Shown here one piece after another: positions 3,349 to 24,647 of a DNA stretch of 24,647 bases. A program made the position numbers and the translations under genes. Origin of the DNA: a virus (taxonomy: Duplodnaviria; Caudoviricetes); the IMG/VR virus record IMGVR_UViG_3300020252_000104, positions 1-24,647 of that record. One strand, given 5' to 3'. The notes under the pieces were generated by a model that was not told where the DNA came from, ran no database searches, and saw only the letters and a list, made by a program, of their open reading frames with translations. Positions within the stretch are counted from its first letter, which is position 1; each line of letters opens with the position of its first letter.

Positions 3349-5367
3349 ATGGGAAGATTTGTAGGGCTAACGCATAATAGGCACAATAAAGGAAGTGGCG
3401 GATCTTCCAATATACTCAGGACGACTGAGTATGAAAGTGTGGCGGGTATTACTACAGATTCTGATAATAATGTCACTGAGATTACTTTAGGTGAAAATAA
3501 GTATGAAGACGTAAAATATAATAACGTAGGACTCATAACGAGTTACGTTGAAAATATTGGTGGGAACAGTATTACGTATAATCTTCTTTACGATGCTGCT
3601 GGAATTGTAACTTCAATACAAGAATTTGTTCCACCAATTCCAACTTATACGTTTGTTGGTATACCTACATCTATAAGTGAAGGTTCTACCGGTATAGTTA
3701 CAGTACAAGTAACTGGTATGAATCCTTCTTCTGTATTATACTGGGATATAACCAACCCTGCTGATTTTACTACGAGTTCTGGAAACTTTTCTCTCGATTC
3801 AAACGCACAGGGGACAGTAAGTATAGGTCCTCTTGCGGATCAACTTACTGAAGGACCTGAAACATTTGTATTTAGAGTTAGAACAGGATCTACTACAGGT
3901 GCTATTGTTACTACAAGTGATCCAATAACAATTAATGATACTTCAAATACTCCAACTTTCGCCCTTACTCCACCCTCATCTATAGATGAAGGTAGTGCAG
4001 GTCTTATTACTTGTACCACGACAGATATTTTTGACGGAACTACTTTATACTGGGATGTAATACCAACAACTGATTTTACTGCTTCTGATGGATCAGTTAC
4101 AGTTAATTCAAATAGTGCAGATATATACGTAACTCCTGATGCGGATCAAACAACTGAAGGACCAGAAACTTTTCAGTTAAAACTTTATACTGATGCTGCT
4201 AGAACGGTGAACGTTGCAACTAGTAGTAGTATAACAATTAATGATTCATCTCAGACACTAGCTTACGCTTTTTCTAATGTTCCTTCATCCATGAATGAAG
4301 GACAAACGATTAATCTTACAGTTACTACTCTGAATACTCCTGATGGTACAACATTATATTGGGATATATTAGGAGGTTCTGGTGTAAATTCTAGTGACTT
4401 TGCAGTATATCAAGATTCAATCACAGTAAATAATAATACCTCTTTAGTTCAAATTAGTACAGCGAATGATAACTCTTCTTCCGAGGGGACGGAAACATTT
4501 CAAGTTAGATTATTTACAGATTCTGCTAGAACAAATCAAGTAGCTATAGCTAGCACTATTACTATTAATGATACTTCTTTCTCTCCACAAGTTGTATATC
4601 AAAATGCTGGAACCTATAGTTGGATATGTCCTGCAGGTGTAACATCAGTATGTGTTGTCTGTGTTGGTGGTGGTGGTAAAGGTGGTGGCGGCGGAGGCGG
4701 CGGAGGCGGTCTCGGATGGAAGAATAATATATCTGTAACAGCAGGTCAATCATATACTGTAGTCGTTGGTGCGCGTGGATCGGACAGTGCAAATGGAGGA
4801 AATTCTTATTTTATAAGCACTGGTACAGTAGCTGGATATGGTGGTAACACTGCCACTAGTTCTTTAGGTACTAATAATACAGCTGGCGGTAGTTATGTTG
4901 GTGATGGCGGTGGTAGTGGTGGAAATGGTAGTAGTTCAAATGCATGGGGAGGCGGCGGCGGAGGTGCTGGCGGATATTCTGGCAATGGTGGATCTTCTAA
5001 CACTGTAAGTGGTAATTCTGGATCTGGCGGTGGCGGTGGAGGTGGCGCTGGTCACTCTAGCACTGACTCTAATGATGGCAAACGTAAAGGCGGCGGTGGT
5101 GGTGGAGTTGGTCTTTTAGGGCAAGGTAGTTCTGGTGCTGGTGCCCCTAGTAGCAGTTATGGTGGTGATGGCGGTTACGGTGGATCTGGCGGTGCAAATG
5201 GAACTCAATCCGGTGCACACGCCGGAGGTGCTGGCGGCAACTATGGCGGTGGCGGTGGAGGATCAAATGATACATCAGGTGGCTTCAGTGGAGGTCCTGG
5301 TAAAGGTGCTGTTAGAATTATTTGGGGCTCTGGACGCTCCTTCCCCTCAAATGCAGGTGATATTTAA
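3349..5367 (+). CDS. Putative tail fibre/adhesin: shared N-module, 3 Ig/Calx-beta-like repeats, Gly-rich tip domain
   Basis: Three ~100-aa repeats (S[IM]xEG...LYWD...TEGPETF...ITINDTS), then YSWICPAGVTSVCVVCVGGGG, poly-Gly tracts and C-terminal GAVRIIWGSGRSFP. Confidence 0.8.
   Translation: MGRFVGLTHNRHNKGSGGSSNILRTTEYESVAGITTDSDNNVTEITLGENKYEDVKYNNVGLITSYVENIGGNSITYNLLYDAAGIVTSIQEFVPPIPTYTFVGIPTSISEGSTGIVTVQVTGMNPSSVLYWDITNPADFTTSSGNFSLDSNAQGTVSIGPLADQLTEGPETFVFRVRTGSTTGAIVTTSDPITINDTSNTPTFALTPPSSIDEGSAGLITCTTTDIFDGTTLYWDVIPTTDFTASDGSVTVNSNSADIYVTPDADQTTEGPETFQLKLYTDAARTVNVATSSSITINDSSQTLAYAFSNVPSSMNEGQTINLTVTTLNTPDGTTLYWDILGGSGVNSSDFAVYQDSITVNNNTSLVQISTANDNSSSEGTETFQVRLFTDSARTNQVAIASTITINDTSFSPQVVYQNAGTYSWICPAGVTSVCVVCVGGGGKGGGGGGGGGGLGWKNNISVTAGQSYTVVVGARGSDSANGGNSYFISTGTVAGYGGNTATSSLGTNNTAGGSYVGDGGGSGGNGSSSNAWGGGGGGAGGYSGNGGSSNTVSGNSGSGGGGGGGAGHSSTDSNDGKRKGGGGGGVGLLGQGSSGAGAPSSSYGGDGGYGGSGGANGTQSGAHAGGAGGNYGGGGGGSNDTSGGFSGGPGKGAVRIIWGSGRSFPSNAGDI
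3481..3524 (+). repeat. 44-bp exact direct repeat, copy 1 (copy 2 at 5493-5536)
   Basis: attactttaggtgaaaataagtatgaagacgtaaaatataataa is present in both paralogues; a 30-bp identical block also occurs at 3898-3927 and 5913-5942. Confidence 0.9.
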
Positions 5368-7988
5368 TGGGTAGATTTATAGGTTTAAGTCACGATAGAT
5401 TTGATGGTGATGGTTCTGCCAATATACTTAAGACGGCTGAATATGAAAGTGCCACTGGAATTACTACAGATTCCAATAACAACGTCACAGAAATTACTTT
5501 AGGTGAAAATAAGTATGAAGACGTAAAATATAATAATGTTGGTTTGATTACTAGTTATGTTGAAATTATTGATGGAGAAAGTATTACATTTAATCTTCTT
5601 TACGACGCTGCTGGAATTGTAACTTCAATACGTGAACAGCAACCTCCGGAACCAACATATATTTTTTCTGCTATTCCCACATCTATAGGTGAGGGAAGCA
5701 CGGGTATTTGTACTGTAGTAACAACAGATGTAAATCCAGGAGCTGTATTTTATTGGGATGTAACTAATCCTAGTGACTTTGATGTAAGTCAACAATCTGG
5801 TTCGTTTACTCTTGGTGCTGGCATAGGAACTTTTAGTGTTGGACCAAGAATTGATTATTTAACCGAAGGTGTTGAAAGTTTTAGAGTAAATATCAGATAT
5901 CCCTCTGCATCGGGTGCTATTGTTACTACAAGTGATCCAATACAAATCGCAGATGATTCATTAACGCCAACTTATTCTGTGCAAGTTCCTGTTTCAATTG
6001 ATGAGGGATCCACTGGTATTTGTACTGTAGTTACTACTAGTCTCTATGATGGTGATATTGTTTATTGGGATTTACTTCCTTCTGGCATGACAGCAGATAT
6101 TGTTTCAACATCTGGTAGTTTGTCTATGACAGCAAACACTGCGACAATAAATTTAACTACGATAAATGATTATACTGTGGAAGGACCAGAAACTTTTCAG
6201 GTAAAACTTTATAGTGATTCTGCTAGAACTGTAAATGTTGCAACTAGTAGTAGTATAACAATTAACGACACTTCTCAATATGCTGAGGGACAACAATCAT
6301 ATACAAGTCCTGGAACATACAGTTGGACTGCTCCCGAAGGAGTTTCTTCAGTTTCTGTTGTTTGTGTTGGTGGTGGTGCCGGTGGTGATAATGGATGGTA
6401 TGAAACTGCTCAAAGAACTCATGGTGCTGGTGGAGGTGGTGGACTAGGATATGTTAATAACATATCAGTAACGGAAGGACAATCATATACTGTTGTCGTT
6501 GGATATGGTGGAACTGGAGGATCATCAGGTCTAATACCGGAAGATGCAGGTGATGGTGGTGATTCTTGGTTTTTGAGTGAGACTACTGTCAATGGTAAAG
6601 GTGGAAAGGCTTGGCACAAGCGAAATATGTATTATCTAACTGGTGGTAATAAAACAAATATAAGTTATCGAGATAGCAGTTCATCAAATCTTAACTTACA
6701 AGGTAACTCTGAGGTTCATGCTGAAGGTGGAGATTTCAATGTATATTACAGACTTGATGGAACCAAAGGAGATAATGCCTCATATGGTGGTAATGGTGCT
6801 TATGTTGCAGGAACTGTCAGAATAAAAGATGGGATGAAAATAAAATGTCGTCTAGATCGAGGGAATGCTGCGATATATCATGAACCATCGTCATTTCAAA
6901 GATCGCATTGTGTTATGTGTGCTGCTGCTGGTGGTGATAAGGGTACTCCTAGAGATGATCTTGGTGGATGGGGTGGTGGACACCCGTCTAGACCTAGAGA
7001 TAGATATGGTGGTGCCGCTGGATCTAATTCTGGTAATAGTGGGGAAAGTTTGAATGGTTCTGGTGGTGGTACAGGTGGAACGACTAGTGGATACATGAGT
7101 GGTAGTGATGGTGTAGGTGGTGTAAATGGTGGGGATCTAATGAGTGGTTCTGCTGGAAGTGGTACACATTTTGTTGGTGGAAATGGTCCTGGTGGTATTG
7201 ATGGAGATGGTGGTAATGGTGGTTCTGGATATTTTAGCGGCGGCGGTGGCGGCGGCGGTTGGGATAGCAACTGGGATTATGGTGGATATTTCGGTGGCGG
7301 TGGTGGAGGAGGATCTACTTATAGTGGAGGACTTCCAAGTCCATCGGTAGATTCAAGAAGTCCTGCTGAAGTTCTTGTTACTAGTGTCTCTGATGGTGGT
7401 AATGGTAGTAATTCAAATAACACTGCTTATATTTCCACTGTTGAAATAGTTTATGGAACAGAAACTAGTAATGGTCAGGGTATTGGTGGTACTTATATTG
7501 GTGATGGTGGTGGTAATGGTGGAAAGGGTGGAAGAGATTCATACAACACAGCAGGTGGAGGTGGTGCCGGTGGATATTCTGGAAATGGTGGAGATGGACA
7601 GGATAATATAAATTCAACTCTTGCAACTGATGGTTCTGGTGGTGCAGGTGGCGGTGGATCTACGGGTAATCGAGATTCTAGTCTTTATGGTGGAAGTGGT
7701 GGTGGAGTCGGTCTACTAGGTGAGGGAACTAGTGGTGCATCTGGTTCTTTTGATTCAAATGATGGATCAACAAGTATCAATCGTGCTGGTAAAGGTGGAT
7801 CTGGCGGTACTGATGGTGATTATGGATCTGGTGGTTCAACTGCTGGAGATTTTGGTGGAGGAGGACGTTCTGGATTGCAGTTTAGTAATGGTAACGTAAC
7901 TGCTGGATCTGCTGGTGCTAGTGGTGGTGTAAGAATTATTTGGGGTCCAAATAGATCTTTCCCATCTACCAATACTGGTGATGTTTGA
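5367..7988 (+). CDS. Putative tail fibre/adhesin paralogue: shared N-module, 2 Ig-like repeats, Gly-rich tip with a nested second Gly-rich domain
   Basis: TAATG-coupled to the upstream paralogue, same architecture, ends GGVRIIWGPNRSFP; ~290-aa insertion at 6606-7481. Confidence 0.8.
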   Translation: MGRFIGLSHDRFDGDGSANILKTAEYESATGITTDSNNNVTEITLGENKYEDVKYNNVGLITSYVEIIDGESITFNLLYDAAGIVTSIREQQPPEPTYIFSAIPTSIGEGSTGICTVVTTDVNPGAVFYWDVTNPSDFDVSQQSGSFTLGAGIGTFSVGPRIDYLTEGVESFRVNIRYPSASGAIVTTSDPIQIADDSLTPTYSVQVPVSIDEGSTGICTVVTTSLYDGDIVYWDLLPSGMTADIVSTSGSLSMTANTATINLTTINDYTVEGPETFQVKLYSDSARTVNVATSSSITINDTSQYAEGQQSYTSPGTYSWTAPEGVSSVSVVCVGGGAGGDNGWYETAQRTHGAGGGGGLGYVNNISVTEGQSYTVVVGYGGTGGSSGLIPEDAGDGGDSWFLSETTVNGKGGKAWHKRNMYYLTGGNKTNISYRDSSSSNLNLQGNSEVHAEGGDFNVYYRLDGTKGDNASYGGNGAYVAGTVRIKDGMKIKCRLDRGNAAIYHEPSSFQRSHCVMCAAAGGDKGTPRDDLGGWGGGHPSRPRDRYGGAAGSNSGNSGESLNGSGGGTGGTTSGYMSGSDGVGGVNGGDLMSGSAGSGTHFVGGNGPGGIDGDGGNGGSGYFSGGGGGGGWDSNWDYGGYFGGGGGGGSTYSGGLPSPSVDSRSPAEVLVTSVSDGGNGSNSNNTAYISTVEIVYGTETSNGQGIGGTYIGDGGGNGGKGGRDSYNTAGGGGAGGYSGNGGDGQDNINSTLATDGSGGAGGGGSTGNRDSSLYGGSGGGVGLLGEGTSGASGSFDSNDGSTSINRAGKGGSGGTDGDYGSGGSTAGDFGGGGRSGLQFSNGNVTAGSAGASGGVRIIWGPNRSFPSTNTGDV
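5493..5536 (+). repeat. 44-bp exact direct repeat, copy 2
   Basis: Identical to 3481-3524. Confidence 0.9.
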
Positions 7989-14225: not shown

Positions 14226-15293
14226 ATGGCAGCAGACGTTTTAGCATATAATGCTCTGGCGGAAATAAATCAAGAGTTAAGAGAGCAAGTTGTTGGTCTA
14301 ACAACCGCTATCGTTGATGCGGGTGGTACTTTAGGACAACCACTTCAGTGTGCTCCTGGCGTTGATTTAAGTGAAAGAAAGCGTTGTATTCTTAATAACG
14401 CCGGATCACCTAATGCAGGTATGTGGTGCATGATTCCTAAGTTACCAGCATCTGGTTCCAATTGGACTACTGGGTTTAAGGTTTGTGATACTACATCTTA
14501 TAGGAGATGTGGTGCTACTTGTACTTGGACTGTTCCTAGCGGAACTGATTGTGTAAGATTCCAAGTTTGGGGTGCAGGTGCAGGTTCTGGATCTGGTTGT
14601 TGTTGTGGTGGATCACCTAATGGTGGTCAAGGTGCCTATTCATCTGTAATTATGCCTGTGCAATCGGGTTGGACCTATACTCTCTGTGCCGGTTGTGCAT
14701 ATTGCTGTTACGTAGAAAGAGCACAGTTTGATGTAGATGGTAATTCTAGTTACGTTCAAGGATGTAATCTATGTAACTTCTGTGCTGAAGGTGGTGAAGG
14801 AAATATTTTCTGTGAAGCAAAAACCAGGCAATATTATGCATCCAACATTTTTAGTTGGTGCATATACATGGCAACTTGTATTTGTAATAATGGAACGGAT
14901 TACTGCTTTGAACAAACAACTCCAGGACTAGGGTATCCCCAGGGGAGAAGAGATGCTAGTGGTCAAGCAACTCAAAGTTGTAAGAGGGGTTATGGATGTG
15001 TTTATGAGTGCCCGAATCAAGTATATAATATTCCTGGGCAGTACAGTTACTTTGCAATGGATTATGGAATGGATCAATTCTGTCTGTATCAACCAGGTGC
15101 TTATGGATACAGAACTCAAAGTTGCTGCTGCCACTGTGTGAATAATGAAAACAGTGGATGCTGCTATCAAGCATGTTACTGCCACCAGATGGCACCAGGT
15201 CAAGGTGGTGTTGGATATTCTACCTGTGGTGGTGATACCAGCGGATGTGGTGATGTAGGTAGAATGGGTATGGTTTGTGTATCATACTGTTGA
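14226..15293 (+). CDS. Cys-rich protein, paralogue 1 (adhesin-tip-like framework)
   Basis: About 38 Cys in 355 aa by hand count; CTWTVPSG..RFQVWGAG, CCC, TYTLCAGCAYCCY, SYVQGCNLCNFCAEGG, GRMGMVCVSYC. Confidence 0.8.
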   Translation: MAADVLAYNALAEINQELREQVVGLTTAIVDAGGTLGQPLQCAPGVDLSERKRCILNNAGSPNAGMWCMIPKLPASGSNWTTGFKVCDTTSYRRCGATCTWTVPSGTDCVRFQVWGAGAGSGSGCCCGGSPNGGQGAYSSVIMPVQSGWTYTLCAGCAYCCYVERAQFDVDGNSSYVQGCNLCNFCAEGGEGNIFCEAKTRQYYASNIFSWCIYMATCICNNGTDYCFEQTTPGLGYPQGRRDASGQATQSCKRGYGCVYECPNQVYNIPGQYSYFAMDYGMDQFCLYQPGAYGYRTQSCCCHCVNNENSGCCYQACYCHQMAPGQGGVGYSTCGGDTSGCGDVGRMGMVCVSYC

Positions 15294-15294
15294 T

Positions 15295-15302
15295 TATAAA
15301 TA
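15295..15302 (+). promoter_or_regulatory. T4 late promoter TATAAATA
   Basis: Perfect consensus, intergenic before ATG 15337. Confidence 0.8.
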
Positions 15303-15336: not shown

Positions 15337-16011
15337 ATGGCAAACATTACATCATCGTTCACTCATCTACTCCCAACTGAATTATATGTGGCTGGTATAT
15401 CCACAAATGTAAGTGGTAGCTATACATATAATGGTCCTGAGACCTTTGATGTATGGATTGAGGCAGCCACTGGTAAATTTATTCAGGTAAAATCTGAACC
15501 TGCTCCAGAAGCAGGTATTTTATCGAAAACTATCAATGCTGCTGATCCATCACAATTACCTGCTGCATATCTGGTAAGTCATTTCTTCCATGATGATTAC
15601 CAATGGAACTATGTCCTTGAAGACGAAGTTCAATCTAATGGAGATGTTTATAAGAAAATTACCAATCCCGACTTAAGAGATGCATATGAACTTAGGTGGG
15701 ATTTTGATACTAGTAAATGGGTATTTGATCAAATTCTTAAGTTAATGTCTAATGACGCCGTCGATGAGGCGAAGCGAAGAAGAGATTATGTAAAGACCTA
15801 TGCCGATCAATATGATTTTGGTGATACTATTAATACTAAAATAGATCATTACATAGCAGGTATTGGAACCTTTATTGGAAATAATCCTGAGCATAAAACT
15901 TGGAAGTTTGTAACTCTTCCTGATCCAGTTGGAACTATTCCAAAAATTCCAGTTGAGATTAGTGTTGAGTTGTCAAAAGTTTCAATTAGTGGTTTAAGTG
16001 TTGGAGGTTGA
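15337..16011 (+). CDS. Hypothetical protein, possibly a tail-fibre assembly chaperone
   Basis: Lies between the two Cys-rich paralogues; helical C-terminus (DEAKRRRDYV...PKIP) is loosely reminiscent of fibre assembly chaperones; contains no Cys. Confidence 0.55.
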   Translation: MANITSSFTHLLPTELYVAGISTNVSGSYTYNGPETFDVWIEAATGKFIQVKSEPAPEAGILSKTINAADPSQLPAAYLVSHFFHDDYQWNYVLEDEVQSNGDVYKKITNPDLRDAYELRWDFDTSKWVFDQILKLMSNDAVDEAKRRRDYVKTYADQYDFGDTINTKIDHYIAGIGTFIGNNPEHKTWKFVTLPDPVGTIPKIPVEISVELSKVSISGLSVGG

Positions 16012-16019
16012 TTGAGTAA

Positions 16020-17084
16020 ATGGATGTATTAGTCTACAGTGCGCTTAACGAACAAGCTGCACTTAAAAAAACTGTTAGAGAAATGCAGCACTGCTTGTTC
16101 TGTTTAACAGACAAGTGTGCTCCCCCAACACCACCACCATCTGCAATTACTCCTGCTTCTTGCTGGCTTGCTCAAGAGAAGAGTATGTGGCATGAAGTCT
16201 GTTGGTGTTGTTGGACATTAATTGATACTGGATCATACAATAATAATACCTGGACTGGTGAGATAAATGTATGTGATGATACTGGATATTATCGTTGCGG
16301 TAGAAGTTGTAACTGGACTGTACCTAGTGGTGTAACAAAAGCTAGATTCCAACTATGGGGTGCTGGTGGTGGTGCAAATAAACCACCTTGCTGCTGTGGA
16401 CATACTAACTTTGGTAATACTGGCGCTTATATGTCAGTTATTATTCCAGTAACTGCAGGACATACTTATACTTTATGTGCTGGTTGTGCGTACTGCTGTT
16501 ATGCATACAGTACATCTGGTGCTAATAGAATGTCTGGATGCCCTTCATATGTTCAAGGATGCCACTTCTGTAATTTCTGCGCAGATGGTGGACGTGGTTC
16601 ATATGCAACATGGAATGGTGATATTGGATCATATTGTGCTTGTAGATTCTCGGGTTATGCTCAACCAGGTTATGGATTCCACATATGTAATACTGGTGGA
16701 GATCTTTGCCATACTGGATATAATACGTGTTGCCATATTAAATATGCATCAGGTGCTGGATATCATGGTGCTATTACGGATATAGATAATCCAACTGAAG
16801 AGAATGTTGTTTATGGTATCCGTGGTTTGTGGCCTTGTCTCTGTAATGATAGTAACAACTATGGTTGGGAGTGTCATGCTCCAATTTACTGCTTCCACGA
16901 CAACACTAGATGTAATCCTTCTTGGTCTTCTGGAAACTGTTGTGGATGCCAGTGCTCTGCCTGGACAAGTAGTTATCTTAGATATCCTGGTGCAGGTGGT
17001 TTCTACTCTCATGCAATGGGTGGTGGTACTGGACTTTATGGGGACTCTGGTAGATTTGGAATGGTTCGTGTATCCTACTGTTAA
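16020..17084 (+). CDS. Cys-rich protein, paralogue 2
   Basis: About 37 Cys in 354 aa by hand count; same conserved blocks as 14226..15293 (CNWTVPSG..RFQLWGAG, CCC, TYTLCAGCAYCCY, SYVQGCHFCNFCADGG, GRFGMVRVSYC). Confidence 0.8.
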   Translation: MDVLVYSALNEQAALKKTVREMQHCLFCLTDKCAPPTPPPSAITPASCWLAQEKSMWHEVCWCCWTLIDTGSYNNNTWTGEINVCDDTGYYRCGRSCNWTVPSGVTKARFQLWGAGGGANKPPCCCGHTNFGNTGAYMSVIIPVTAGHTYTLCAGCAYCCYAYSTSGANRMSGCPSYVQGCHFCNFCADGGRGSYATWNGDIGSYCACRFSGYAQPGYGFHICNTGGDLCHTGYNTCCHIKYASGAGYHGAITDIDNPTEENVVYGIRGLWPCLCNDSNNYGWECHAPIYCFHDNTRCNPSWSSGNCCGCQCSAWTSSYLRYPGAGGFYSHAMGGGTGLYGDSGRFGMVRVSYC

Positions 17085-17117: not shown

Positions 17118-17151
17118 TACCATCGGTTGACTAAATAAATCACCGATGGTA
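17118..17151. repeat. Inverted repeat TACCATCGGT-N14-ACCGATGGTA (hairpin/operator-like)
   Basis: Perfect 10-bp arms at 17118-17127 and 17142-17151, extendable by 2 bp with one bulge; AT-rich loop. Confidence 0.85.
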
Positions 17152-17155
17152 TAAT
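17127..17155 (+). promoter_or_regulatory. Sigma70-type early promoter: TTGACT-17 bp-TATAAT with extended -10 TG
   Basis: -35 TTGACT 17127-17132, TG 17147-17148, -10 TATAAT 17150-17155; RBS GAGGT 17166-17170 precedes ATG 17180. Confidence 0.8.
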
Positions 17156-17179: not shown

Positions 17180-18307
17180 ATGAATAAAGCGTTTTTCATT
17201 AACGGAGGGGCGGGGAGAGTTCTCTGTTCTATCCCTGCATTAGAGAAGTATGCAGAAACCCACGACGATTTTATTATCGTAGCGGAATCTTGGGGAGAAC
17301 TTTACTTATGTTGTCCCAATCTAAGAGAACATGTTTATCCTATGGGACATAAGGGTCTCTTTGAAGAAAAATTATTAGATAAAAAGATTATATCTCCAGA
17401 ACCATATAGAGTTAATCAATACTTCAATCAAAAATGCAATTTGATTCAAGCATTTGATATTATTATTAATGAACTTGATGAACCTAGAGAACTTCCAAAG
17501 ATTAAACTTGATATTAGCAAAGAAGATCAAATAACTGGTTATAATATTATTACTGAAGTTAGGCAAAATTTAGAAAAAGAAAAGGTTATTGTATTTCAAC
17601 CCTTTGGACAAGGATCAAAAGTATCTGGCAATTTCATATATGATTCTAGCGGTAGAAGTTTTGAAGTTTCTAACGTGATTCAAATAATTGAAAGACTGAA
17701 AGAAAAATATGGAGTTATCTTGATGTCAGATATTGACATCCCTGGTTGGACGCAAATGGGTGTTGCTAGACCAAAAGAAATTGGTTTAAATGGATGGGCT
17801 GGTGTTATCAATGGTGCTGATTATTTCCTAGGATGTGATAGTGTAGGACAGCACTTTGCACATGCTGTTAATACACCAGCTTGTGTTGTTATTGGATCAA
17901 CTTTCCCCGAAAATATTTCATATCCACAGTCTAGTAACTTTAATATTATTGATAATGGTAAAGGTAAGAGGAAGTATAGTCCTATTAGAATTACTTTTAA
18001 TATAGACTGTGATCGAAATAACGAAAGTCTTATGGTGATGGAAGAAAAACAGATTGATGAGATTATTAAGACGATTGATAAAAAACTAAAACCATCTAAA
18101 AGTTTTAGTGGGTCTAAATTGAATGGTATTAAACCTTCTTCAAAAGGTGGACCTTCATCTGCTCCACTAGTAAACTTTAAGCCAGCAACTCCTGGTTCAT
18201 TTAAAAAAGAAAAAACTGCAAAGAAAAAACCAATTGATGAAATAATGGAATTAGAAGTGAGTAAAACAAAAGAACAAACTACTGAAGTTGAAAAAGTAAT
18301 TTCCTGA
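17180..18307 (+). CDS. GT-B glycosyltransferase, family 9 (heptosyltransferase)-like
   Basis: N-terminal FFINGGAGRVLCSIPAL, VIVFQPFG and ADYFLGCDSVGQHFAHAVNTPACVVIGST, resembling the GT9 motif DSGxxHxAxAxxxPxxxxFG; Lys-rich C-terminal tail. Confidence 0.7.
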   Translation: MNKAFFINGGAGRVLCSIPALEKYAETHDDFIIVAESWGELYLCCPNLREHVYPMGHKGLFEEKLLDKKIISPEPYRVNQYFNQKCNLIQAFDIIINELDEPRELPKIKLDISKEDQITGYNIITEVRQNLEKEKVIVFQPFGQGSKVSGNFIYDSSGRSFEVSNVIQIIERLKEKYGVILMSDIDIPGWTQMGVARPKEIGLNGWAGVINGADYFLGCDSVGQHFAHAVNTPACVVIGSTFPENISYPQSSNFNIIDNGKGKRKYSPIRITFNIDCDRNNESLMVMEEKQIDEIIKTIDKKLKPSKSFSGSKLNGIKPSSKGGPSSAPLVNFKPATPGSFKKEKTAKKKPIDEIMELEVSKTKEQTTEVEKVIS

Positions 18308-18318
18308 GGTTTATAGTA

Positions 18319-20064
18319 ATGAGTATTATTGTATCTGTAGCTCGTGGACATAATGCGAGCACCACTCTCCTTGTCAATGGAGAAATTGTTTTTTATCTTG
18401 AAGAAGAGAGACTTTCTAGATTAAAGAGGGACGGAACTCCCTTTATGGGTTTGGCTAAAGTGTTTGATTACGTAGATCATATTGATGATCTAGTCGTTTG
18501 TCATACTCACCGCCAGGGAGCACAAGCCGATTGGACTGGTGAAGACATTTATTTAAATTTTGTGAGAAAGTTCACGAAGAAAAAATTTAAATTTCATACT
18601 ACATTCATTGATACTATCCATCATCAATTACATGCAGAATGTGCATTTGTTAATTCTGGATTTGATGATGCCGCCTGTGTTGTAGTTGATGGTGCAGGAT
18701 CTTTCTTAAAAGGTGAAGGTATTGAAGATACTGTTTTTGAATTTGAATCAATTTTTGAAGCCAAAAAACCATTAAGAGTTAAAACTGCTTTTAGGCATCT
18801 AGGAACTAAATCACCAATTGGAGTTATGGTCAGTGGAAATGACCTTGTCACTGAGTATCCCGGTATTGTTAAAGAATACGAATCAGTAACTAGATATTGT
18901 GGATTCTCTTCAATTGATGCTGGAAAAACCATGGGTCTTTCTCCTTATGGGAAAGAGAATCCGCAGATTCCTGAGATGTTCCCTGGTGGATATGGCAATA
19001 GAGATCTTTTTATACCAGACTATCCTAATGGATCTACTATTAATGTTTCTAGATATAAAATTCTTAGTGATGATGCGCGAGAACACAAGACTGGTGAATA
19101 CACTCAGGTTCAAAAAGATTTAGCATATGCAATTCAAAGGGAGAGTGAAGAACAAGTTTGTAGACTTATTCAACTAGCTGCCACAAAAACAGGTAAAACA
19201 AATATTTGTATATCTGGTGGATATGGATTGAATTGTGTAGCAAATTATAAATTTAAGAAGAGGTTCCCTGAACTCAATATCTATGTTGAACCTATCTCTC
19301 ACGATGGAGGAACATCTATAGGAGGTGCTTATCATCTTTACTACAATAGAACGAAGAAAAAGTTTAGAGATTTACCCAACATTCATCCTCCTAAAGATCT
19401 ATATTATGGTCCAAAATGTGATCCTCAAACATACCTAGATGATATTCCTGAAGATTTAGCTACAGTAACTGATACCTCTTATGCTGATGTTGCAAAACTA
19501 ATTCGTGATGGGAATATTGTAACTATCTTCCAAGGAAAATCTGAAGGAGGTCCTCGCGCACTTGGCAACAGATCTATTCTTTTTGATCCTACTATCAAAG
19601 ATGGTAAGGACATTGTGAACAAAGTAAAGCGTCGTGAATTTTTCCGTCCGTTTGCTTGTTCTGTTCTTGCTGAAAAGGCAAAAGACTGGTTTGATCTTGC
19701 GGGCATGGATGAATCTCCACATATGATGTATGCTGTAGATTGTTTACCTGGCGTTGAAGAGAAAATCCCTTCTGTTATCCATGTTGATGGTACTTGTAGG
19801 ATTCAAACAGTTACAGAGGAACAGAATGATCATTATTATAAATTGATCAGTGCATTTGAAAAACTCTCAGATACTCCTATCTTATTCAATACTTCATTTA
19901 ACCTTGGTGGAGATCCTCTGGTTGAAACTATTGAAGATGCTATCCTTACTTTGAGTAATAGTGAATTGAATTATATGTATCTCCCAGAGATACAAAAACT
20001 TGTCTATGTAGAAACAACTCAAACGGATTACGAACCATGGGAAATTGCATCAACAATAAACTAA
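18319..20064 (+). CDS. Carbamoyltransferase, NodU/CmcH/TobZ family
   Basis: EEERLSRLK, HHQLHA, VVDGAG, GKTMGLSPYG, SGGYGLNCVAN, HDGGTSIG, EGGPRALGNRSIL, VKRREFFRPFA, HVDGTCRIQTV, NTSFNLGGDP. Confidence 0.95.
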   Translation: MSIIVSVARGHNASTTLLVNGEIVFYLEEERLSRLKRDGTPFMGLAKVFDYVDHIDDLVVCHTHRQGAQADWTGEDIYLNFVRKFTKKKFKFHTTFIDTIHHQLHAECAFVNSGFDDAACVVVDGAGSFLKGEGIEDTVFEFESIFEAKKPLRVKTAFRHLGTKSPIGVMVSGNDLVTEYPGIVKEYESVTRYCGFSSIDAGKTMGLSPYGKENPQIPEMFPGGYGNRDLFIPDYPNGSTINVSRYKILSDDAREHKTGEYTQVQKDLAYAIQRESEEQVCRLIQLAATKTGKTNICISGGYGLNCVANYKFKKRFPELNIYVEPISHDGGTSIGGAYHLYYNRTKKKFRDLPNIHPPKDLYYGPKCDPQTYLDDIPEDLATVTDTSYADVAKLIRDGNIVTIFQGKSEGGPRALGNRSILFDPTIKDGKDIVNKVKRREFFRPFACSVLAEKAKDWFDLAGMDESPHMMYAVDCLPGVEEKIPSVIHVDGTCRIQTVTEEQNDHYYKLISAFEKLSDTPILFNTSFNLGGDPLVETIEDAILTLSNSELNYMYLPEIQKLVYVETTQTDYEPWEIASTIN

Positions 20065-20465
20065 TTTGGTGTAATGGAACGTTTGATATACTTCACCCAG
20101 GTCATATAGAGTTATTTAAAACTGCTAAAAATCTGGGCGATAAGTTGATTGTAGCTACGGATAGTGATGAAAAAATCCGAAAGGATAAAGGTGAGCATCG
20201 CCCTATGAATGATTTGTGCTCAAGGTTAGCGATGCTCTCTGCAATTAAGTATATTGATGATGTATTGTTTTTCAATGATAGAAAGCATCTTGAAGACTTA
20301 ATTAAATTATATTCTCCTGATATTATATTATTGGGAAGTGATTGGGAAAATGGTGATGTTGTTGGTAGAGAGTATGCTAAAGAAGTTAGATTCCTTCCAA
20401 GGTATGGTGGATACTCCAGTACTAAAATTATTGAGAAAATAAATGAAAGTTCTTCTACTCGGTGA
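20037..20465 (+). CDS. hldC: Heptose 1-phosphate adenylyltransferase-like (HldE/RfaE domain II; HxGH nucleotidyltransferase)
   Basis: NGTFDILHPGH, GDKLIVATDSD, KGEHRP, GYSSTKII; adjacent to the RfaE kinase domain. Confidence 0.8.
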   Translation: MGNCINNKLIWCNGTFDILHPGHIELFKTAKNLGDKLIVATDSDEKIRKDKGEHRPMNDLCSRLAMLSAIKYIDDVLFFNDRKHLEDLIKLYSPDIILLGSDWENGDVVGREYAKEVRFLPRYGGYSSTKIIEKINESSSTR

Positions 20466-21189
20466 TAGTTGTGAAGATGAATACATTTATGGCAGGTGTG
20501 AGCGTATTAGTCCAGAAGCACCTGTTCCAGTTTTAAAGTATGCAAAGATAAAAACTAAACCTGGAATGGCAGGTAACGTTTGTTTAAATCTTCAAGCATT
20601 TGGTATTGATGTAACTTTTTTAACTAACTCTGAAAGCATAGTTAAAACTAGATTCATTGATGAAAAATCAAATCAACAAATTTTAAGAATGGATAATGAA
20701 GAAAAGGTAAAACCTCTTCTTGTTCCTGTGTCTACTAGTAGTTTTGATGCTGTTGTAATTTCTGATTATAATAAAGGTTATCTGACCTATGATAAGATTG
20801 ATGAAATTGTAGAAAGTTCTTCTTGTCCTGTTTTTATTGATAGTAAAAAAACGATTCTTCCTAATAAAGAAAATTGTTTTGTTAAAATTAACGATTTAGA
20901 ATATGAAAATCTGAGAGAGGATTGTCATATTGATAACTTAATTGTTACTAAGGGATCTGAAGGTTGTGTTTATAAACAAACTCTATATCCTGCAGAAAAA
21001 GTAAATGTTTATGATGTCGTAGGTGCAGGAGATACATTTTTGTCTGCTCTTGTATATGGATACATAACTTGTGGAGATATTGAGTATTCTTTAATGCTTG
21101 GTAATAGAGCTGCTGCTAAAGCAGTTCAACAACCTGGAACTTATATTTTAACTGAGGATGATATAGATGAGATATTGCATAGACATTGA
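20443..21189 (+). CDS. hldA: Heptose 7-phosphate kinase (HldE/RfaE domain I, PfkB family)
   Basis: LLLGD..DEYIYG..RISPEAPVPV, GMAGNV..NL, KTRF, VVISDYNKG, VYDVVGAGDTF. Confidence 0.9.
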   Translation: MKVLLLGDSCEDEYIYGRCERISPEAPVPVLKYAKIKTKPGMAGNVCLNLQAFGIDVTFLTNSESIVKTRFIDEKSNQQILRMDNEEKVKPLLVPVSTSSFDAVVISDYNKGYLTYDKIDEIVESSSCPVFIDSKKTILPNKENCFVKINDLEYENLREDCHIDNLIVTKGSEGCVYKQTLYPAEKVNVYDVVGAGDTFLSALVYGYITCGDIEYSLMLGNRAAAKAVQQPGTYILTEDDIDEILHRH

Positions 21190-21496
21190 TGGAACAATTT
21201 GTAGTCCAACTGTAGGGAGGAACTATCATGAAGCACAACCTTGGTATGATAGAATAGAAAGAGTGAATAAAATGTATGATGAGGGTCATTACATAATCTA
21301 CTTCACTGCGAGAGCGATGGGTAGATTTGCAGGTGATCCTGATGCAGCATCTAAAGCAACTGTATTAATGAAGGATTTAACTACAGAACAGTTAAATACT
21401 TGGGGGTGTAAATACCATGAATTAATTCTTGGTAAACCACACGCCGATCTATTCATCGACGATAAAGGAATTAACTGCGATGACTTCTTCAATTAA
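21167..21496 (+). CDS. Minimal HAD-superfamily phosphatase
   Basis: YCIDIDGTI (DxDGT), FTAR, GKP and FIDDK motifs; lacks the GmhB DRDG and Zn-binding motifs. Confidence 0.8.
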   Translation: MRYCIDIDGTICSPTVGRNYHEAQPWYDRIERVNKMYDEGHYIIYFTARAMGRFAGDPDAASKATVLMKDLTTEQLNTWGCKYHELILGKPHADLFIDDKGINCDDFFN

Positions 21497-21833
21497 ATAT
21501 GTTCCCAAGGGTTGGGGATATGAGAAGTGGATTGTAAACAATGATTCTTACTGCGGAAAACTTTTGTTCATTGAAAAAAATAAAAGATGTTCTTGGCATT
21601 ATCATAAAGTAAAAGATGAGACCTTCTATTTACAGAGTGGTCTCATCTCATTGTACTATGGTTATGATGATGATTTGGCAAAAGCAGAACTTATCGTCCT
21701 CACTCCAGGTGAAAAGTTTCATGTTCCAATTGGATTAAGGCATCAAATGGTTGCTTTGGAAAATGCCGAATTGTTTGAATTTTCAACTCAGCATTTTGAT
21801 GAAGATAGTTATAGAGTAATTAAAGGAGATTAA
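21480..21833 (+). CDS. Cupin protein (sugar-phosphate isomerase-like)
   Basis: VPKGWGYEKWI, CSWHYHKVKDETFY, HVPIGLRHQM cupin metal motifs; ATG 21480 preferred over track start 21429. Confidence 0.8.
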   Translation: MTSSIKYVPKGWGYEKWIVNNDSYCGKLLFIEKNKRCSWHYHKVKDETFYLQSGLISLYYGYDDDLAKAELIVLTPGEKFHVPIGLRHQMVALENAELFEFSTQHFDEDSYRVIKGD

Positions 21834-22414
21834 TGCTTCAAACACTGACCCACAATTATTATTCAATAATTGATCCACCTAACGTGGAGGAATTATTGGA
21901 TGCGGTGGAGAATGCAAATCTTATGGATGAGCAAGAATTTACTTGGACTGATGGTTGTCTTATTGAAGTGGAAAGGTTAAATCTTAATGATAATTTTTTT
22001 AATTTGATAAGACCATCTTTAAGTATATTTTTTGATGAGTTAAATATAGATCCAACAAATCTTGGTGTACATTGCCATGAAGTCTGGAGAAATACTTATA
22101 AGAAAAATTTTTTCCAGGAAATCCATGATCATACTCCTATGACTTTATCTGGAGTTTTATTTCTAACGGATCAAGATCAAGATGATGGTGGTATGTTCTT
22201 CTTTTACAATGAAGGATTTAAAGAAGTTCCTTCAGAATTAAGAGAATTAAATTTTTCTGGGTGTAGGGAATATATTTTTTCCAAAAGGGGTAGAGTATTA
22301 TTATTTCCATCATATATGTTACATGGAGTAACTAGATATAAATCAGATATCCCAAGAAAAACAGTATCATTTAATATAATACTTCGTCCTAACATTCAAG
22401 ATACTGAGGAATAG
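21833..22414 (+). CDS. 2-oxoglutarate/Fe(II)-dependent oxygenase-like protein
   Basis: WRNTY..FQEIHDH..LSGVLF, GRVLLFPSYMLHGV, RKTVSFNI; TAATG coupling to the cupin gene. Confidence 0.85.
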   Translation: MLQTLTHNYYSIIDPPNVEELLDAVENANLMDEQEFTWTDGCLIEVERLNLNDNFFNLIRPSLSIFFDELNIDPTNLGVHCHEVWRNTYKKNFFQEIHDHTPMTLSGVLFLTDQDQDDGGMFFFYNEGFKEVPSELRELNFSGCREYIFSKRGRVLLFPSYMLHGVTRYKSDIPRKTVSFNIILRPNIQDTEE

Positions 22415-23180
22415 TTTTAAATTTATAGTCCCCCCATAGTTTTTTCGCACAAGTGTAATCTTGATATTTACCTTTTAAATGGTCGGGAAATGGAATGTAT
22501 TCTATATCTCCGCCATATTTTTTTATGCAGCATTCTGCAACAAATTGAAAACTAACAGGAGCACTAGTACCTAAATCATAGATACCAGATTTCTTTCCAT
22601 TACCTAATACTAGATCTACAATATCATCAACACAGATAAAATCTCTCAGATAATTTTCAGATCCTTCAAAGAGTTTTAGTTTACCAGTTTCTTTGATTTG
22701 CTTTGTAAACTTACTTACAGGGCTTGCTTGATCTGCTTTGTGATTCTCACCATCACCATACACATTGAAGTACCTGAATCCTTGAATAAGTGGAAACTCC
22801 TTCATGTGATCTTCTACCCAATAATCAATAGTTACTTTGGATAGTGCATAATAATTTAGAGGATTAATAATACCTGTTTGATTTCCATACACAGATGCTG
22901 ATGAAGCATACTTCACAGGTATATTATACTTAGCAGCCATTGTAAATAACCATTGACTAAAGTCAATGTTATATTCATAAATTTTATCTAGATTAGTTTC
23001 GGTTGTTGATGATATTGCACCTTGATGAATGATCATCTCAACATCATTCCAACTATTAAAATAGTTACGAAAGTATGAGCAATCATTTTGCTCCACTCCA
23101 AGAACTTTTTTACCTAATTTTACCAAGGCAGTATCAAATTTTTTACCAATAAAACCTTTGTGACCTGTGAGAATAATCAT
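22389..23180 (-). CDS. hldD: ADP-L-glycero-D-manno-heptose 6-epimerase (extended SDR)
   Basis: MIILTGHKGFIG Rossmann start at 23180, HQGAISSTTE, YASSASVYG, PLNYYALSK, RYFNVYGDGENHK, RDFICVDD, YIPFPDHLKGKYQDYTCA. Confidence 0.9.
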   Translation of the reverse strand: MIILTGHKGFIGKKFDTALVKLGKKVLGVEQNDCSYFRNYFNSWNDVEMIIHQGAISSTTETNLDKIYEYNIDFSQWLFTMAAKYNIPVKYASSASVYGNQTGIINPLNYYALSKVTIDYWVEDHMKEFPLIQGFRYFNVYGDGENHKADQASPVSKFTKQIKETGKLKLFEGSENYLRDFICVDDIVDLVLGNGKKSGIYDLGTSAPVSFQFVAECCIKKYGGDIEYIPFPDHLKGKYQDYTCAKKLWGDYKFKTIPQYLEC

Positions 23181-23217: not shown

Positions 23218-24647
23218 ATGGCGTTTGGACTTCTTAATTCTATTATACCAGATCCTGGGACGGTACTCAACCTTTACACTGGTCCTGCAGGAAAATTGAC
23301 TGTAGGTAAGATAACTATTAATAGTAAAAATTATAATCCTTCTAGAATTCAGATTGGATATAAAGATGGTAATAATATAAGATATTTTGAATATAATAGA
23401 TCTATTAAATACGGAGAAACAATTCAAACTGAAGATATTTATTTGGGTGCGGGGCAAGAATTGGTAGTTAAATCTACAGAAACAGATGTAAACTTTTTAT
23501 TTTATGGGCAAACACAGAGTGATACAGTAAATCCAGTAAGGTCTGGCGTACTCAATCATGTTTCTTCAGTTGGTACAACTAAACAGATAATTTATACCGC
23601 ACCTCAAGGATCTCAAACTGAATCTACAATTTCAATTGTTAATTTAGGTCCTGATGTATCTACTGTGAAGTTAGGCATCTCTAATGCAGGATTAAATGAT
23701 TTTGACTCAACTGAATATATTGATTATGGTTTTGATATTGGACCTGGTCAGACATATACTAGACCTGGAATTAAATTAAGTGCCGGTCAATCTTTGATAG
23801 GATTCTCAAATACTGGATCTAATATATCTTTCCTTTCTCATGGTATACTATACTATCAGGCAACTGGTTTACCCACTAGTGATGATCTGATGGTTCTTGG
23901 TGATTCAAGAATCACTGGTAATCTAGGTATTGGTAGAACAGCAGAATATAAGTTAGATGTTCTGGGTGATACTAGAATCTCTGGAGTTACTACAATAGGA
24001 GATAATCTAACTGTTGGTGGTGGATTGGAAGTTGTGGGAATGTCTACATTCTCAGGCATCTCCGTTAATTCTGGAAATATTAGTATTACTAGTATCGATA
24101 CTAATAGACTGTTTCAGACTGGTATTGCAACTTTTAGAGGTAGTACTATAATTGACGGTGAGGAAGCAAAATTCCAAACAAGTTATTTCAGATCACTGGC
24201 AAATCAAATAGTATTGGGTTACAGTACCTCCACCACTTTTAGGGGTTATGGTACTGCTAATACTAATGTTGTTAATATGAATCAAACATGGATGACATCT
24301 GATGAGTTAAGTAATACTAAAGATTTACTTGATGGTGCTACACTTTCTCTTGTAAGTAGTGAAAATGGATTACTGACATTAGACTCTGGAACAACTATTC
24401 AGTCAAAAACTTTTGATTCTGAGGGTAAGTTAGCTTCTCTTACACTTTCAAATAATTTTGGTGGATCAGGTTTTGGTATTTGTACTTTCTCAATAAATGG
24501 ACCCGCAGATGCGAGTGCAAATAATGGTGGTATAGTGATTAAAGGGACATCTGATAAACATTTTCTCTATCGACAATCATCAGGTTGCTTTGAGTCTTCA
24601 GATGGTATAAAAATTAATACTGGAGATTTAAAATTTTCCGGTGGAGG
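23218..24647 (+). CDS. Putative tail fibre/structural protein, 5' part (at least 476 aa; absent from the ORF track)
   Basis: Translated by hand: MAFGLLNSIIPDPG... open to the window end; two tandem copies of the 13869 domain, then GNLGIGRTAEYKLDVLGDTRISGVTT resembling the 8930 protein. Confidence 0.85.
   Translation, partial: MAFGLLNSIIPDPGTVLNLYTGPAGKLTVGKITINSKNYNPSRIQIGYKDGNNIRYFEYNRSIKYGETIQTEDIYLGAGQELVVKSTETDVNFLFYGQTQSDTVNPVRSGVLNHVSSVGTTKQIIYTAPQGSQTESTISIVNLGPDVSTVKLGISNAGLNDFDSTEYIDYGFDIGPGQTYTRPGIKLSAGQSLIGFSNTGSNISFLSHGILYYQATGLPTSDDLMVLGDSRITGNLGIGRTAEYKLDVLGDTRISGVTTIGDNLTVGGGLEVVGMSTFSGISVNSGNISITSIDTNRLFQTGIATFRGSTIIDGEEAKFQTSYFRSLANQIVLGYSTSTTFRGYGTANTNVVNMNQTWMTSDELSNTKDLLDGATLSLVSSENGLLTLDSGTTIQSKTFDSEGKLASLTLSNNFGGSGFGICTFSINGPADASANNGGIVIKGTSDKHFLYRQSSGCFESSDGIKINTGDLKFSGG

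Follow-up and report, generated by a model that had tools for sequence, protein, structure and literature searches.

The genes considered here were already catalogued between 2005 and 2010 as cyanophage "LPS genes" (LPS, lipopolysaccharide). The accessible text of Sullivan et al. (2005) reports 24 such genes in phage P-SSM2 and suggests a change of the host surface (PMC1079782), and that of Sullivan et al. (2010) notes that T4-GC304, 305, 307 and 308 co-occur, its authors not knowing whether they are functional (PMC3037559); for the wider T4-GC302–308 cluster, the available parts of the two papers offer host surface change or filler, with no chemistry and no fibre acceptor. According to the portions available of two commentaries, Tang et al. 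(2024) found viral heptose enzymes to be active, with the phosphatase not found in viruses and the purpose unsolved (PMC11573728, PMC11461863). A literature search, in which coverage of subscription papers was limited, returned no report of fibres as acceptor or of a cupin acting as isomerase. Here we describe a cassette of such genes at positions 17180–23180 of the viral contig IMGVR_UViG_3300020252_000104 (24,647 nucleotides), which appears to come from a marine T4-like cyanophage. The window analysed is the whole 24.6-kb contig, its own genome being known as a fragment, and apart from the cassette it consists entirely of tail and fibre genes. We propose that this phage adds heptose, probably with a carbamoyl group as well, to the receptor-binding proteins at its own fibre tips, a reading that we judge to be narrowly on the probable side. 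The support on hand comprises gene content, folds, linkage, cysteine co-variation and host gene scarcity, and it is from these that we infer which reactions occur, which donor and acceptor they use and what purpose they serve.

The closest described cluster is T4-GC302–308 itself (PSSM2_307–313; S-CAM1 SXBG_00222–216; S-SSM7 SSSM7_120–133), which has the same genes, order and strands. The glycosyltransferase (GT) and the kinase are 69% and 84% identical to those of P-SSM2, and only the place of the 2-oxoglutarate (2OG) oxygenase gene differs. With the GmhA-HldE-GmhB-HldD pathway the cassette shares HldA-, HldC- and HldD-like enzymes, and a cupin and a minimal haloacid dehalogenase (HAD) stand in place of GmhA and GmhB. 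The GT has the fold of WaaC/WaaF (CAZy GT9, PF01075; Z 19–21), differing in an Arg at the Asp13 position and in its setting, as the host family mostly lacks a transferase for 3-deoxy-D-manno-octulosonic acid (Kdo).

Aah and TibC heptosylate Ser residues on adhesins, and TibC-type enzymes are marked by an iron-bound dodecamer and by heptosylation of a neighbouring protein. The phage GT shares their fold core, and its gene likewise lies beside the predicted target, although it has neither a match to TIGR04414 nor the TibC N-terminal region. The glycocin S-glycosyltransferases SunS and ThuS place sugar on Cys, using a GT-A fold, UDP-hexose donors and small peptides; their likeness to the phage GT is limited to the predicted sugar on cysteine, and no homology is claimed. 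In mycobacteriophage virion glycosylation the modified sites are the C-termini of capsid and tail tube proteins (Freeman et al. 2023, as cited in the accessible text of PMC12619734), whereas here the predicted target is a receptor-binding tip and the phage carries its own donor pathway.

Gene content of the cassette

All eight open reading frames (ORFs) that were originally predicted to form the cassette are confirmed, and they match P-SSM2 genes PSSM2_307–314:

17180–18307, plus strand: GT with a GT9/TibC fold and Arg13 (T4-GC302, phrog_8954)
18319–20064, plus strand: O-carbamoyltransferase of the NodU/CmcH family (T4-GC303; PF16861 E 1.5e-57, PF02543 E 2e-22)
20037–20465, plus strand: HldC-like heptose-1-phosphate nucleotidyltransferase (TIGR02199, 115 bits against a cut-off of 181.5; 37% identity to the C-domain of E. 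coli HldE)
20443–21189, plus strand: HldA-like heptose-7-phosphate kinase, PfkB type (TIGR02198, 150 bits against a cut-off of 345; 28% to E. coli)
21167–21496, plus strand: minimal HAD phosphatase of the EcbF/BcbF type, a likely stand-in for GmhB (TIGR01689 E 1e-8; motif DIDGT...K...DD)
21480–21833, plus strand: metal-binding cupin, likely a sedoheptulose-7-phosphate isomerase replacing GmhA (PF07883; H38, H40, E45, H86)
21833–22414, plus strand: 2OG-Fe(II) oxygenase, a variable passenger (PF13759 E 2e-12)
22389–23180, minus strand: HldD-like ADP-heptose 6-epimerase (TIGR02197, 203 bits against a cut-off of 274.6; 39% to E. coli)

The seven plus-strand genes have overlapping ends, and the HldD-like gene is convergent on them. 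The original prediction mentioned neither the strand of HldD nor the lack of a GmhA. Since the order is common to P-SSM2, S-CAM1 and S-SSM7, the arrangement is not due to chance. As first noted, both flanks are made up of fibre or structural genes, by annotation and by fold matches. The 2OG oxygenase gene, in contrast, was matched by tblastn in just 9 of 80 GT loci, and the suggested hydroxylation of the sugar by this enzyme was set aside because the gene is not conserved.

The genes around the GT vary between loci. Duplicated carbamoyltransferases, a halogenase, a methyltransferase and SGNH-like genes come and go in L003, L016, L053, L058 and L076, suggesting variable tailoring. In about 20 loci (e.g. 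L018, L023, L025, L029, L037, L038) a heme oxygenase (PF01126) and a ferredoxin-dependent bilin reductase (PF05996) follow the GT-carbamoyltransferase pair.

Linkage of the glycosyltransferase to cysteine-rich tail proteins

Immediately upstream of the GT lie two paralogous Cys-rich proteins and an intervening small gene:

14226–15293, plus strand: Cys-rich fibre-tip (receptor-binding type) protein 1, predicted acceptor (38 Cys in 355 residues; phrog_35878)
15337–16011, plus strand: probable fibre assembly chaperone, judged by its position between the tip genes; TATAAATA at 15295
16020–17084, plus strand: Cys-rich fibre-tip protein 2, predicted acceptor (37 Cys in 354 residues; 36% identity to protein 1; phrog_35878)

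This proximity recurs widely. An ORF with at least 5% Cys was found within 4 kb of the GT in 60 of the 62 IMG/VR loci having at least 4 kb upstream (18 loci with less were excluded), against 7 of 733 other ORFs of at least 200 residues. In the reverse search the GT was present in 52 of 55 loci of the Cys protein, and in 50 of 50 where at least 3 kb of downstream sequence was available. The carbamoyltransferase lies near the GT in 80/80 IMG/VR loci. Among cultured phages, relatives of the window's Cys protein and of the S-CAM1 type occur in GT-bearing records only; the exception to the rule is one partial single-cell contig, in which the Cys-protein match sits at the contig end. Among the acceptors first considered, fibres are thus the best supported, by linkage, with the qualification that Cys-rich tip proteins are indicated rather than Ser/Thr-rich ones.

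A model of tip protein 1 (pLDDT, predicted local distance difference test, 82) gave its best match to the fibre protein gp24 of phage Pam3 (Foldseek E 4e-6; VIA Z 13.4 with rmsd, root-mean-square deviation, of 16 over 219 aligned residues), followed by the Bxb1 tail tip (Z 11.3, rmsd 4.2, 190 aligned). The predicted fold comprises a helix, a TNF-like domain and a Gly-rich domain, as in Pam3 gp24, and in both phages the tip gene stands beside a chaperone gene (gp25 in Pam3), at 15–18% identity. Wei et al. (2022) describe Pam3 gp24 as receptor-binding with the chaperone gene adjacent, and the accessible text of that paper contains 0 mentions of cysteine or glycosylation (PMC9608196). The candidate chaperone ORF itself has no Pfam match; the family encoded at the equivalent place in other loci scores 25.2 bits against PF16778 (Phage_tail_APC), just under the cut-off of 26.6. 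Of the 38 Cys of tip protein 1, 6 are conserved at 90% or more and 20 at less than 50%. Elsewhere in the window (3349–7988) are two fibre-type proteins that are rich in Gly and bear Calx-beta-like repeats; with less than 1% Cys, against 10% in the tip proteins, they serve as an internal contrast. A subtilase at 1112–2974 (PF00082, E 6e-27) also lies amid the fibre genes and has a counterpart in P-SSM2, PSSM2_297.

The association extends to unrelated phages. In Aeromonas phage HJ05 the GT directly follows a fibre gene whose product is rich in Cys and Gly at its C-terminus; this fibre has no relatives in the phage collection and hence offers no contrast between genomes with and without the GT. 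In the N4-like Vibrio phages SBP1 and D497 the GT directly precedes a tail protein with 41 Cys, whereas the related tail proteins in 1.261.O and PG11, whose genomes lack the GT, have 7 and 4 Cys. Three partial homologs of the SBP1 protein have 4, 6 and 14. When SBP1 was aligned to 1.261.O, 15 of 19 Cys stood opposite polar residues (background 50%, p 0.01), which points to surface positions for these putative sites.

Divergent GTs (22–36% identity) were compared by a preset Cys-window test, and a Cys-rich neighbour was found in 17 of 28 loci, several of which are near-duplicates, against 3 of 48 control loci. Among the 11 misses, three have less than 1.2 kb upstream and four translate poorly with table 11, one of these passing with table 4. 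Ten of the Cys-rich neighbours were scanned, giving RCC1 in one, Lcl_C in two (weak), Phage_Tail_Tip in one and no Pfam match in six; Cys enrichment therefore recurs on different folds beside the GT. Single-protein scans of the divergent set returned nothing. Some of the GT-bearing phage contigs read TGA as a residue (L322 and L333, also L324 and L325); the coding cover is 0.92 in L322 and 0.77 in L333 with table 4, against less than 0.05.

Structure and family of the glycosyltransferase

The GT model, built from 68 sequences (pLDDT 89.7), clearly indicates a GT9-like GT-B fold. The highest VIA matches were to the GT9 protein 3tov (Z 22.8, rmsd 3.6, 278 aligned) and WaaF (Z 21.1), followed by TibC (Z 19.6, rmsd 3.1, 262 aligned) and WaaC (Z 19.3). 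A GT9-fold NDH subunit also matched at Z 19, and the next GT class at Z 12.2. A fold match of this kind cannot tell a lipid acceptor from a protein acceptor. The alignment to TibC begins at TibC residue 97, leaving its N-terminal 96 residues uncovered. Placement came from the fold search alone, as the GT profile gave 0 matches among PDB sequences. Profile comparison with WaaC/WaaF covered 50 C-terminal columns at 69% probability. The region of a C-terminal DS..H motif is shared with WaaC/WaaF, and the identity to these enzymes is 12–16%.

By family criteria the GT is outside both Aah/TibC and WaaC/WaaF, although its logic appears to resemble that of Aah/TibC: it scores 17.9 bits against Pfam GT9 (PF01075), under the 22-bit gathering cut-off, and does not match TIGR04414 in an NCBIfam search at E 0.001. 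A Vibrio phage homolog does exceed the PF01075 cut-off, at 25.4 bits. The family comprises 578 clusters at 50% identity (E ≤ 0.001). Arg13 is present in 68/68 aligned sequences and in 83/85 GT copies from the loci. It aligns with Asp13 of WaaC, which we take to be the catalytic base, in a global sequence alignment on which this register rests. The GT also carries a Lys-rich, variable C-terminal tail (approximately residues 310–375; window 18110–18307) that is absent from the Vibrio homologs. A complex prediction for the GT with tip protein 1 gave no answer (score 0.00) and is used neither way.

The heptose donor pathway

Profile searches returned heptose families as the best NCBIfam matches of the kinase, nucleotidyltransferase and epimerase, all three scoring below curated cut-offs. 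The heptose pathway first proposed is retained for its HldA-, HldC- and HldD-like members and modified at the remaining steps, where neither GmhA nor a GmhB-family enzyme is found. GmhA (SIS-fold) was detected in 0 of 37 distinct phage records, in 0 of 240 loci and in none of the ORFs of the contig, and E. coli GmhB has no blastp match in the cassette, where the EcbF-type HAD is present instead.

Near the GT, the 80 IMG/VR loci contain the kinase in 38 cases, the cupin in 38 and HldD in 36, and cupin and kinase are concordant in 76 of them (36 with both, 40 with neither). In 80 prokaryotic cupin loci the kinase was found 41 times, GmhB 27, a WaaF-like GT 20 and GmhA 0; about half of these loci have no heptose gene nearby. 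The nearest solved sequences to the cupin are lyxose and ribose isomerases, at weak E-values (6e-4 to 0.07). Taken on sequence evidence, the cupin is quite likely the isomerase that acts in place of GmhA. Counting against this assignment, a sub-cut-off GmhA-like gene occurs elsewhere in 15 of 50 cupin genomes and in 10 of 28 operon-bearing ones (counts to which the unpublished G036/L127 adds one).

Operons of the order GT9-cupin-HldD-kinase-GmhB-HldC, with no GmhA within, were seen in Woesearchaeota-type archaea (L120, L126, L128, L136, L140 and others). Contigs of metagenome-assembled genomes labelled Planctomycetaceae, Euryarchaeota or Verrucomicrobiales (L088–L092) encode 70–76% identical cupins, several in phage-type order, and are probably phage DNA in bins.

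No locus combines the small HAD with a GmhB-type gene (0/5), and 9 kinase loci have neither. The small HAD is a likely candidate for the pathway phosphatase, and the label 'phosphoheptose isomerase' that it bears in PHROG/RefSeq appears to be a mislabelling. Where the accessible texts of PMC11573728 and PMC11461863 give an Arg at position 5 of the STTR5 motif of promiscuous nucleotidyltransferases, the HldC-like protein has Tyr.

Phages SBP1, HJ05 and D497 have no cupin and no carbamoyltransferase, and the GT stands alone beside the Cys-rich tail protein. Vibrio and Aeromonas hosts supply ADP-heptose themselves, which fits this absence. The system may thus consist of two modules, with the GT and the Cys-rich tip as core and donor supply added where needed. 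In S-SM2 (L085), P-TIM68 (L086) and S-T4 (L087) the heptose genes stand in another setting, close to hli genes and alongside other glycosyltransferases, and may serve a different target.

Host background

The similarity to P-SSM2 noted above suggests a picocyanobacterial host. Host gene content was sampled in 81 genomes from the family of the Prochlorococcus-like genome G249 (8 Pcb-type genes over cut-off), which we take to be the picocyanobacterial family. Kdo transferase was found in 8 of the 81 (6 strong), HldC in 3, and GmhA-like matches in 17, with 0 over the cut-off. The available part of a review describes Synechococcus LPS as being without heptose and Kdo (PMC4377996). The expectation that the normal host acceptor would be missing is borne out by these counts. 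The rarity of Kdo transferase and HldC in the host family gives a cyanophage a reason to encode the donor pathway itself and takes away the usual acceptor. An initial host set of 40 small genomes, drawn phylum-wide and containing Kdo transferase, HldC and GT9 nearly throughout, was dropped, as the chlorophyll antenna gene was found in 0 of 5 checked and the genomes were therefore not picocyanobacteria.

Promoters and timing

The two best sigma70-type sites within 11 kb coincide with the two starts of the cassette:

17118–17155, plus strand: sigma70-type promoter TTGACT-17-TATAAT with extended -10, ahead of the GT (top of 50 sites)
23242–23270, minus strand: sigma70-type promoter-like site TTGAGT-17-TATAAT with extended -10, ahead of HldD (second of 50 sites)

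Overall counts are at chance (50 sigma70 sites against 47.6 expected, and 3 copies of TATAAATA against 2.9); the information lies in their positions only. TATAAATA precedes three structural genes. Among relatives, regions upstream of the GT reach a sigma70 score of at least 10/12 in 38 of 84 cases and hold a late-type motif in 36 of 84; the corresponding counts are 6/93 and 9/93 for the carbamoyltransferase and 0/29 and 26/29 for a small structural gene. The purely late context first described does not hold, given the sigma70-type promoter ahead of the GT. Expression may begin early and continue late, which weakens the notion of a late operon and would fit donor stockpiling or host remodelling. 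No expression time course of P-SSM2 was found in the literature. An inverted repeat at 17118–17155 (hairpin z -3.5) overlaps the GT promoter and holds a late-like CTAAATA in its loop. The arrangement of hairpin, promoter and late motif is similar in P-SSM2 relatives and is a possible operator or early/late switch.

Proposed mechanism and alternatives

Sedoheptulose-7-phosphate is an intermediate of the Calvin and pentose-phosphate pathways. In the proposed scheme the cupin would isomerize it to heptose-7-phosphate, the HldA-like kinase would form the 1,7-bisphosphate and the small HAD would release the 1-phosphate. The HldC-like enzyme would then produce ADP-D,D-heptose, to be epimerized by the HldD-like enzyme to ADP-L,D-heptose. 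Within the cytoplasm, either ahead of assembly or while it proceeds, the GT would transfer heptose onto the Cys-rich tip proteins, and the carbamoyltransferase would cap a sugar hydroxyl with an O-carbamoyl group. The purpose could be host range or shielding of the fibre tip. S-heptosylation is favoured because Arg13 replaces the Asp base, which fits a thiolate acceptor needing no general base; cysteine as the sugar acceptor on the tips is nevertheless a tentative proposal, which we rate as short of an even chance.

Several observations weigh against tip heptosylation. On the side of the donor, the heptose families matched by the kinase, nucleotidyltransferase and epimerase are each matched below the curated cut-off. 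The kinase is near the GT in just 38 of 80 loci and anywhere in 20 of 30 contigs, one complete genome of 65 kb encodes GT and carbamoyltransferase with no kinase or cupin, and Hld genes occur within 6 kb in 0 of 28 divergent GT loci; as the GT is often found without these genes, the donor may differ. Conversely, S-SM2, P-TIM68 and S-T4 carry heptose genes without this GT, amid other glycosyltransferases, and just 23 of 80 viral cupin loci include it. On the side of the acceptor, the 6 near-invariant Cys are as expected for structural disulfides or metal ligands, which they possibly are, and another host glycan is a possible acceptor compatible with the rarity of Kdo transferase. In the model comparison an LPS-type GT9 is structurally nearest, ahead of TibC, and the sigma70-type promoter before the GT would fit early host remodelling equally well. 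As regards the linkage, the Vibrio contrast is one of two lineages against two, 11 of 28 divergent loci miss the Cys test, L333 being a clear miss, and kinship among loci means that the counts overstate independence.

The alternative that survives best, although we regard it as unlikely, is that the encoded enzymes alter LPS or a surface glycan of the host envelope in the early stage of infection and thereby block superinfection (cf. Sullivan et al. 2005). The promoters at both cassette starts, the LPS-type GT9 as best fold and the LPS-like clusters in which other cyanophages keep heptose genes would all suit such a role, whereas few genomes of the host family have a Kdo transferase, the LPS of Synechococcus contains neither Kdo nor heptose according to a review (accessible text of PMC4377996), the GT accompanies Cys-rich tail genes also in unrelated phages, which infect hosts already equipped with heptose-containing LPS, and no flippase or export gene is prominent in the loci (as judged by clustering only).

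To be doubted to nearly the same degree is a scheme in which the GT modifies fibres with a donor other than heptose or by a different chemistry. Another nucleoside diphosphate sugar could be used, or the Cys could be disulfide or metal ligands and the heptose genes could feed other glycosyltransferases. The top folds of known activity, however, all use ADP-heptose, and the Hld genes lie directly behind the GT-carbamoyltransferase pair in about half of cyanophage-type loci and elsewhere in others (G002). The separability of GT and heptose genes in both directions, the loss of the canonical base through R13 and the 6 near-invariant Cys keep this scheme under consideration.

Carbamoyltransferase together with heptose genes recalls secondary-metabolite clusters, a point for the view that the genes make a free heptose metabolite; they could also be dispensable filler in a large genome, 'stuffer DNA' having been raised in the available text of Sullivan et al. 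(2010; PMC3037559). Both ideas are improbable, given genes that are intact and conserved across hundreds of contigs and a reciprocal linkage with the tip genes. Hypermodification of phage DNA by GT and carbamoyltransferase, as in the 5-carbamoyloxymethylcytosine system and as originally listed among the options, is very improbable: in the accessible text of Yang et al. (2021; PMC8670742) phage PF16861 carbamoyltransferases do modify 5-hydroxymethylcytosine, and the promoter is of early type, but those DNA-modifying enzymes are tied to the thymidylate-synthase homolog PF00303, for which 0 of 5 GT-bearing genomes, complete or nearly so, gave a match, carbamoyltransferases on unmodified contigs adjoin glycosyltransferases, and the present cassette sits in a tail module.

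Returning to heptosylation of the tips, a broader and more speculative proposal, which we advance only tentatively, is that a phage-specific GT9-fold family S-heptosylates Cys on the surface of the receptor-binding tail proteins of T4-like, N4-like and other phages that are not related to one another, that dozens of Cys were gained in these proteins as sugar attachment sites, and that cyanophages add a self-made carbamoyl-heptose pathway with the cupin as a new sedoheptulose-7-phosphate isomerase.

Implications

The analysis bears on the role of the cyanophage "LPS genes", a question since 2005, and on why viruses make heptose, as raised in 2024; P-SSM2, S-CAM1 and SBP1 are all cultured phages. 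If the cupin reading is true, the enzyme would be an unrecognised first step of the ADP-heptose pathway, present also in Woesearchaeota, and the labels 'cysteine dioxygenase' and 'phosphoheptose isomerase', the latter on the wrong gene, would be corrected. A GT-B enzyme densely S-glycosylating the Cys of a folded structural protein would, if true, be a case of new chemistry. Should the tips be glycosylated, not sequence alone but also a sugar coat would set the host range of phages that are abundant in the ocean.

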